Positions 27,551 to 28,617 of a DNA stretch of 64,000 nucleotides are shown here, in pieces (the stretch's first letter is position 1; every line of letters starts with the position of its first letter). Origin of the DNA: Shigella phage ESh26; the sequence record ON528736; one strand, 5' to 3'. The position numbers and the translations under genes were made by a program. The notes under the pieces are model-generated. The model saw nothing but the letters and a program-made list of their open reading frames with translations, made no database searches and was not told where the DNA came from.

Positions 27551-28411
27551 TTACACCGCCATCTTTCCTTTAATTGGCGGGTGAGATACGTAGTTGTTAA
27601 GAACAAAATTATGTGGCTTTGCGAATTGACTCAACCAAAATACCTGTGATTCTGTGTCCCATTCATCAAATTCATCTGGAAATTTTAATTGTAATTCGCA
27701 TAAATCCATAGGTTCACGACGCAAAAGTTCTTTACATTGTTCTACGTGATTCATATAGATATGAGTATTACCACCAGAAAATATCAAATCTCCTGGAATA
27801 AGATTACACATCTTAGCTACAATATGAACTAACGTAGCATATGATGCAATATTAAATGGAAGACCGAGGAAAACATCTACCGAACGTTGATACCACTGCA
27901 AATCCAAATAGCCATTACGTACGTTAAATTGATAGAACATATGACAAGGCGGTAATGCCATATATTTAAGTTCAGCTGGATTCCATGCAGAAACAATTTG
28001 ACGCCTATCATTTGGCAGTTTTTTAATACGATCAACAACTTCTATAATTTGGTCTACACCACCAAAATCGCGCCATTGTTTTCCATAAATTGGACCAAGT
28101 TCACCGCTATGGTATCCTAAATCTTTTGCTTGATTTTCGTAATTTTCATCCCAAACTGTTTTACCTTGAATTAATGAATCATGTTGAATTAATCGTAAAT
28201 CATTGACATTCGTGCTTCCCGATAAAAACCATATTAGCTCAGCAATACAAGCTTTCCAGGCGAGCTTCTTAGTCGTTACTGCAGGAAAACCTTTAGTTAA
28301 ATCCCAGCGTAATTTAGTACCGAACAAAGCAATTGTTCCTGTGCCTGTTCGGTCATCGGTTTCATAACCGTTTTCCAGGATATCTTTAATTAAAAATTGG
28401 TATTGTTTCAT
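27551..28411 (-). CDS. td: Thymidylate synthase, uninterrupted
   Basis: 286 aa from internal ATG (MKQYQ...); no intron; conserved LPPCH motif. Confidence 0.9.
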   Translation of the reverse strand: MKQYQFLIKDILENGYETDDRTGTGTIALFGTKLRWDLTKGFPAVTTKKLAWKACIAELIWFLSGSTNVNDLRLIQHDSLIQGKTVWDENYENQAKDLGYHSGELGPIYGKQWRDFGGVDQIIEVVDRIKKLPNDRRQIVSAWNPAELKYMALPPCHMFYQFNVRNGYLDLQWYQRSVDVFLGLPFNIASYATLVHIVAKMCNLIPGDLIFSGGNTHIYMNHVEQCKELLRREPMDLCELQLKFPDEFDEWDTESQVFWLSQFAKPHNFVLNNYVSHPPIKGKMAV

Positions 28412-28617
28412 TAGTTCATCCAAGAATATGTAGAAGGATATTTGGCAAAGTTAGGCTTATATCCTAATTTAACCATTTGTTTTGCTTTGCGAGTAAATCC
28501 TAAAGAACGCTCACCTTTAAGATATTGTTTTGGTGTCATAGGCCCTTGATGCATCTGCCGACAAATAAAAAGGGCCATAGCATTAGGAACATCCTTAACT
28601 TTTAATTTATTGCTCAT
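28411..28617 (-). CDS. Small basic protein (68 aa) wedged between frd and td
   Basis: ATG overlaps frd stop (ATGA); its TAA overlaps td ATG (TAATG); K/R rich. Confidence 0.45.

Follow-up and report, generated by a model that had tools for sequence, protein, structure and literature searches.

A small gene between frd and td of Shigella phage ESh26, coupled to both and probably imported from a Dhakavirus-like phage

In Shigella phage ESh26 (record ON528736), a 68-codon ORF lies between frd and td and overlaps both genes. We studied it in one stretch of 64,000 nucleotides of this genome, called here the window. The best explanation overall is a small accessory gene of virulent enterobacterial myoviruses, coupled to its neighbours and imported from a Dhakavirus-like phage. 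We give this reading a probability of about 0.7. The ORF was already known as an object, though it is uncharacterised: many deposited Tequatrovirus genomes encode a hypothetical protein with 100% identity to its product, which falls into a PHROG already defined. A literature search found nothing specific to it.

Results and discussion

Position of the ORF and coupling to its neighbours

The frd and td genes appear in one account of T4-related phages as auxiliary-metabolism genes (PMC2993671). In the window, the region presents the following features.

28614..29198, minus strand: frd (dihydrofolate reductase), 194 aa, 86.5% aa identity to T4 Frd
28411..28617, minus strand: 68-aa ORF, PHROG 9550 member; 7.9 kDa, pI 10.26, predicted three-helix protein
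27551..28411, minus strand: td (thymidylate synthase), 286 aa, no intron; the SA21RB relative is a single 861-bp CDS
28614..28617, minus strand: ATGA, overlap of frd stop and ORF start, putative termination-reinitiation site, read from the sequence
28409..28413, minus strand: TAATG, overlap of ORF stop and td start, read from the sequence
28376..28617, minus strand: minimal Dhakavirus-type tract, probably introgressed (ORF and td nt 1-36), from the diagnostic-site map of five ORF-bearing Tequatroviruses

The initial annotation described a 207-bp ORF exactly between frd and td, with its start on the frd stop and its stop on the td start. The sequence confirms this arrangement on the minus strand (28617..28411), with an identical translation. 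The ORF ATG (28617-28615) and the frd stop TGA (28616-28614) have three bases in common and form ATGA. Likewise, the ORF TAA (28413-28411) and the td ATG (28411-28409) have one base in common and form TAATG. An SD-like GGA is found 8-10 nt 5' of the td start, within conserved Trp-Met codons of the ORF. The context TGGATGRACTAATG at this second overlap is common to the window, Marfa and 4S.

For T4, the initial annotation gave a direct overlap of frd stop and td start, and the T4 record indeed shows it (4 nt, ATGA). The two phages share the same operon, an ATGA at the end of frd and nearly identical flanks. However, the ATGA connects frd with td in T4; in the window it connects frd with the 68-aa ORF, which a TAATG links in turn to td. 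The alignment of the junction across T-even phages, proposed with the initial annotation, gives exactly 206 extra bases in the window relative to T4, with AATGA on both sides. T4 is without exactly these 206 bp, so the ORF is not a conserved element of T4 itself.

We place the frd start at the ATG at 29198, because of the homology to T4 Frd; the SA21RB annotation agrees. The in-frame ATG upstream (29225), taken by the mechanical ORF list, is not the true start. A further TAATG at 29196-29200 joins frd to an 81-aa ORF upstream of it, so stops and starts overlap in a chain through the whole frd-td block. Compared with T4, two small ORFs are additional between frd.1 and frd, of 81 aa (29198-29443) and 110 aa (29455-29787).

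The ORF has the marks of a translationally coupled operon gene, with overlapping stop and start codons and no intervening promoter or terminator. On the coding strand of the frd, ORF and td intervals, we looked for promoter-like and terminator-like sites and saw none; it is therefore fairly safe to infer that the three genes share one polycistronic mRNA. Translation by termination-reinitiation at both ATGA and TAATG is a similarly safe expectation. Ribosomes finishing frd on this mRNA would reinitiate into the ORF at ATGA, and then from the ORF into td at TAATG. Because of reinitiation at both overlaps, the translation of td would stay coupled as in T4, and the small protein would be made in step with both enzymes.

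The sequence TATAAATG (window 28615-28622, minus strand) overlaps the end of frd and the start of the ORF. We take it to be a 7/8 match to the T4 late-promoter motif TATAAATA. T4 has the same sequence at this place.

Conservation of the ORF

The ORF matches the HMM of PHROG 9550 with an E value of 1.3e-45, residues 1-68 aligning to profile positions 1-68 of 68. It was found by tblastn in 237 phage records. As a member of this PHROG (for example UIU27904.1 of SA21RB and YP_009855949.1 of Enterobacter phage CIP9), it shows no difference from the group. The copies of SA21RB and other Tequatroviruses occupy the same frd-td position as in the window.

The dN/dS values against the Marfa, CIP9 and 4S orthologues were 0.16, 0.19 and 0.08, in comparisons whose synonymous sites are near saturation; the full range was 0.08-0.28. 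Twenty residues, among them N3, K4, K6, V7, V10 and P11 at the N-terminus, do not vary even in a Phapecoctavirus homologue of 49% identity, and the family alignment shows the N-terminal 26 residues to be conserved. Because the N-terminal residues are invariant, the 68-aa start is favoured over the 42-aa truncation given in some records. The initial annotation had allowed for a stretch without coding signal. The range of dN/dS and the full-length match to PHROG 9550 speak against this, and on these comparisons the ORF stands as a genuine, conserved gene.

The annotation of the ORF in deposited genomes is inconsistent. It is absent in JS98 and JS10, and appears as a 42-aa truncation in ACG-C40 and IME339. 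The PYPS2T record names it 'flagellar biosynthesis protein'. The sb4 copy (701-907 of its examined stretch) carries nine nucleotide changes, and its codon 54 is a premature stop. The td gene is likewise split in the sb4 record; either the cassette is decaying or these are sequencing errors.

Three alleles at the frd-td junction

Phage records matching the flanks numbered 568, and the 206-bp insert is present in 135 of them. The frd-td junction is a small polymorphic accessory slot with three alleles in T-even phages.

68-aa ORF: 134 records (at least 90% aa identity)
T6-type 115-aa ORF (phrog_1928): 363 records (at least 90% aa identity)
Empty junction, as in T4: ~31 records, about half of them T4 itself (one-piece flank matches)

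The empty T4-type junction is the rare allele, and most relatives hold the 115-aa ORF there. The 68-aa ORF had been presented as an insertion compared with T4. It is indeed missing from T4. Nevertheless, it is not peculiar to this genome, since ~134 Tequatrovirus/Dhakavirus records carry it.

The 115-aa ORF (T2, T6, RB14, Shfl2, wV7) occupies the same slot, and its function is likewise unassigned. Its insert of 416-417 bp has a flanking 8-bp repeat, AAATGAAA, so that short repeats stemming from the ATGA context delimit the ORF; in T6 it lies at 1757-2104 of the examined stretch. However, it is twice the length of the 68-aa ORF and unrelated to it in sequence. It also differs in having no translational coupling, with spacers of 20 nt and 44 nt. 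One record labels it 'putative homing endonuclease'; searches in Pfam and NCBIfam gave no match for it.

The td gene has no intron in the window. A link between the ORF and this absence was rejected, as ACG-C40 and PYPS2T have both the 68-aa ORF and a td intron with I-TevI. Elsewhere in the window, a 389-aa ORF (within 23508-26993) is presumably nrdB. It follows nrdA by ~50 nt, without mobE and nrdB.1 of T4.

The protein and its possible function

The protein of 7.9 kDa had been called basic, which is correct: it contains 13 K+R against 2 D+E (pI 10.26). All 31 family members are basic down to 26% identity, with pI 9.75-10.6 and net charge +7 to +17, and this strong positive charge is the one property conserved in all of them. 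An AlphaFold2 model from the 31-sequence alignment reached pLDDT 84, with predicted helices at 13-24, 29-38 and 43-49; the C-terminal tail is ordered. An earlier model from 12 sequences (pLDDT 57) was too poor for use. In the family alignment, the loop joining helices 1 and 2 is basic, and its length varies.

A profile search of 1.84 billion representatives gave ten true clusters, all of 70-96 aa and phage-type, plus one spurious repeat protein; a profile-seeded search gave ~40 clusters at 90% identity. With the single protein, Pfam gave no family at E<=10. Across 20 family members, it gave chance-level matches only, none of them HTH (best E 0.01, in at most 2 members each). Neither the single protein nor the family alignments gave a match in NCBIfam or among PDB sequences, and the PADLOC models found no family for four diverse members. 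The three-helix model had no match among known folds, solved tri-helical HTH domains included. A helix-turn-helix DNA-binding protein was rejected, since neither a sequence family nor a fold of this type was matched. Among nucleic-acid-binding families and folds in general, the protein matched none. The initial annotation suggested nucleic-acid binding, and the basic charge of PHROG 9550 proteins throughout the family is compatible with it.

We offer a guess about function tentatively. The product might bind a polyanion (nucleic acid or an acidic host protein) and act as a dispensable host-interaction factor and not in dTMP synthesis.

A counter-defence or host-takeover effector under positive selection would be compatible with this guess; we regard it as conceivable but rather doubtful. 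Positive selection would explain why the cassette spread within and between genera and kept hardly any of the donor flanks. Copies from two genera and several species are near-identical, and the flanks diverge. Homologues beyond Straboviridae, in Phapecoctavirus phAPEC8 and two metagenomic phage contigs, are located in runs of small early-type accessory ORFs. Substitutions also recur in near-identical copies at two loop residues, 26 and 29, which points in the same direction. However, the protein has no similarity to any known anti-defence or defence-associated protein, and neutral hitch-hiking in a recombination-prone region could account for the spread.

Near-identical copies of the ORF vary mainly at residue 26 (P/R/H/Y) and residue 29 (P/S/Q), which sit in the helix 1-2 loop (codons 26-29, window 28531-28542). 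This variation could reflect relaxed constraint or diversifying selection.

Two stronger proposals are unlikely, in our judgement. One is a new small fold acting as a positively selected host-interaction or counter-defence factor that drove an inter-genus sweep of a minimal cassette of ~250 bp into the frd-td operon. The other is a new small subunit tuning the phage pair of DHFR and thymidylate synthase.

Orthologues in other genera

In Marfavirus, Kanagawavirus and Serratia phage 4S, td is immediately preceded by the orthologue. In these genera the 68-aa ORF and phrog_1928 coexist in tandem, and every time it is the 68-aa ORF that adjoins td, its stop overlapping the td start. The order is frd, phrog_1928, 68-aa ORF, td in Marfa and 4S. 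CIP9 has two consecutive copies of phrog_1928 (frd, phrog_1928, phrog_1928, 68-aa ORF, td).

The protein is 81, 69 and 62% identical to the orthologues of these three phages. Against the same three phages, td shows 73-76% and frd 40-48%, so the values of the ORF fall among those of its neighbours. Because of this, and because orthologues adjoin td across genera, the association of the ORF with td is old in Straboviridae.

In Klebsiella phage Marfa, the 'intergenic' stretch after frd (2017-2142 of the examined stretch) reads as what is left of the C-terminus of a second phrog_1928 copy (...GRFVKHGSKLYFSPEHEKSY). This truncated remnant is direct evidence of deletion within the frd-td interval.

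Introgression from a Dhakavirus-like donor

The ORF is identical to that of Dhakavirus JS98 in 204 of 207 nt (98.6%). The JS98 flanks show ~83% identity to the window in the final 60 nt of frd; along td, stretches of 100 nt have an identity of 57-88%. In an alignment of the window with T4, JS98 and Bp7, a Dhakavirus with an empty ATGA junction, the flanks are genus-specific. The same 206-bp presence or absence occurs in both genera.

We defined diagnostic sites as fixed differences between four ORF-less Tequatroviruses and three Dhakaviruses. We then scored them in five ORF-bearing Tequatroviruses (window, SA21RB, ACG-C40, PYPS2T and sb4), which represent at least three ICTV species. In frd, the seven sites nearest to the junction (-7 to -33) are all Tequatrovirus-type in the five phages. 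Over the whole gene, 23-24 of 24 sites are of this type, and site -73 is Dhakavirus-type in three of the five. On the td side, all six sites at nt 16-36 are Dhakavirus-type in the five phages. From nt 57 onward td is Tequatrovirus-type, except for four Dhakavirus-type sites (nt 123-148) in sb4. On the frd side the crossover falls within 28617-28619, and on the td side within 28356-28376.

The patch at td nt 16-36 points to the direction of transfer. It is also present in Bp7, without the ORF, whereas the ORF-less T4, T6, Shfl2 and WilhelmHis have the other type. By these sites, introgression from Dhakavirus to Tequatrovirus evidently occurred. Since the ORF-less Bp7 shares the patch, the simplest reading of the map would be one introgression of ~245-265 bp (28356/28376 to 28617/28619) from a Dhakavirus-like donor, followed by spread within Tequatrovirus. 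The ORF would have arrived as a tract of ~250 bp reaching from the frd stop codon to ~40 nt inside td. Despite its old association with td in Straboviridae, the ORF is, to judge from these sequences, a recent import in this lineage.

The opposite history is improbable. It holds that the ORF is ancestral in Tequatrovirus, that T4 lost it by deletion between the AATGA repeats, and that the near-identity of JS98 comes from a Tequatrovirus-to-Dhakavirus transfer. The orthologues directly upstream of td in several genera, and thus the old association, agree with this history. Moreover, AATGA flanks the 206 bp, and a precise microhomology deletion would yield the T4 junction; deletion does occur in the interval, as the Marfa remnant attests. 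However, the distribution of the td patch in the five Tequatroviruses, in Bp7 and in the four ORF-less Tequatroviruses speaks for the direction Dhakavirus-to-Tequatrovirus.

For the Dhakavirus-like import, the left crossover interval is at most six bases, AAATGA. Such a narrow crossover could come either from microhomology-mediated joining or from repeated back-crossing that trimmed the donor flank. The recipient junction may have been T4-type or T6-type.

The idea of a modular gene insertion holds in that the ORF is discrete, doubly coupled and, by these sites, laterally acquired in this lineage. The means, though, would be recombination between relatives and not transposition. A transposable element or MITE was rejected as a source: the ends of the insert have no inverted repeats, and the sole flanking repeat, AATGA, is the start/stop context itself. 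A foreign base composition was also rejected, with GC of 34.8% against 35.9% for the window and a GC3 similar to the flanks. Likewise, a host or prophage origin was discarded, since the ORF sequence is absent from 5,426 complete E. coli genomes. We looked for paralogues in the 64-kb window and found none.

Accessory ORFs differ among T4-related genomes; they are small, non-core, variably present and swapped between relatives. The 68-aa ORF resembles them, being small and non-core, variably present between conserved genes and exchanged among relatives. It differs from them in that the exchange unit and both crossover intervals are here mapped to few bases, and in having no flanking promoter or stem-loop cassette. 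The survey of alleles and the introgression agree with what is established about modular exchange among T4-like phages.

Less probable roles of the ORF

A role as a small adaptor or regulator contacting DHFR, thymidylate synthase or both, in the T4-type dNTP-synthesising complex, is very unlikely. The bifunctional DHFR-TS enzymes have a basic junction peptide, which offers a loose analogy to the 68-aa protein. Such a role would suit the constant position of the ORF in Straboviridae, immediately upstream of td and coupled to it, and the overlapping codons would favour synthesis in step with both enzymes. However, the homologues of phAPEC8 and the metagenomic contigs stand among unrelated small ORFs, and we looked for td and frd beside them in the stretches examined and found neither. 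In addition, most T-even phages are without the ORF and show no visible compensation.

There is hardly any chance that the ORF is not a gene but a chance ORF in a non-coding spacer, an RNA element or a remnant of a homing endonuclease or transposon: it is short, unannotated or truncated to 42 aa in the records named above, and flanked on both sides by a 5-bp direct repeat, but the conservation pattern (dN/dS and the N-terminal 26 residues) already contradicts this reading, as do its ends without inverted repeats. A structured RNA element was rejected, as the sole Rfam match scored 15.8 bits against a gathering score of 84 and the mRNA folding z-score was +0.42 relative to shuffled controls. 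A free-standing homing endonuclease of the seg/mob type was also rejected, with no nuclease motif and no GIY-YIG or HNH match in Pfam or NCBIfam; at 68 aa, with a single conserved His, the protein is too small for one.

Significance

The 68-aa protein is an orphan: its model is confident, its basic charge runs through the whole family, and no relative of its fold could be detected. Among the many uncharacterised early proteins of phages, it is a reasonable, though not urgent, candidate. Its inconsistent annotation in GenBank could be harmonised.

The main value of the analysis is a correction. Among sequenced T-even phages, the arrangement of the T4 reference, in which frd and td overlap, is in the minority. 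The frd-td junction is a slot for nothing or for one of two unrelated accessory ORFs. Mapped almost to the base pair, the probable introgression suggests that T4-like phages trade single small genes and leave the translational coupling of the essential neighbours undisturbed.
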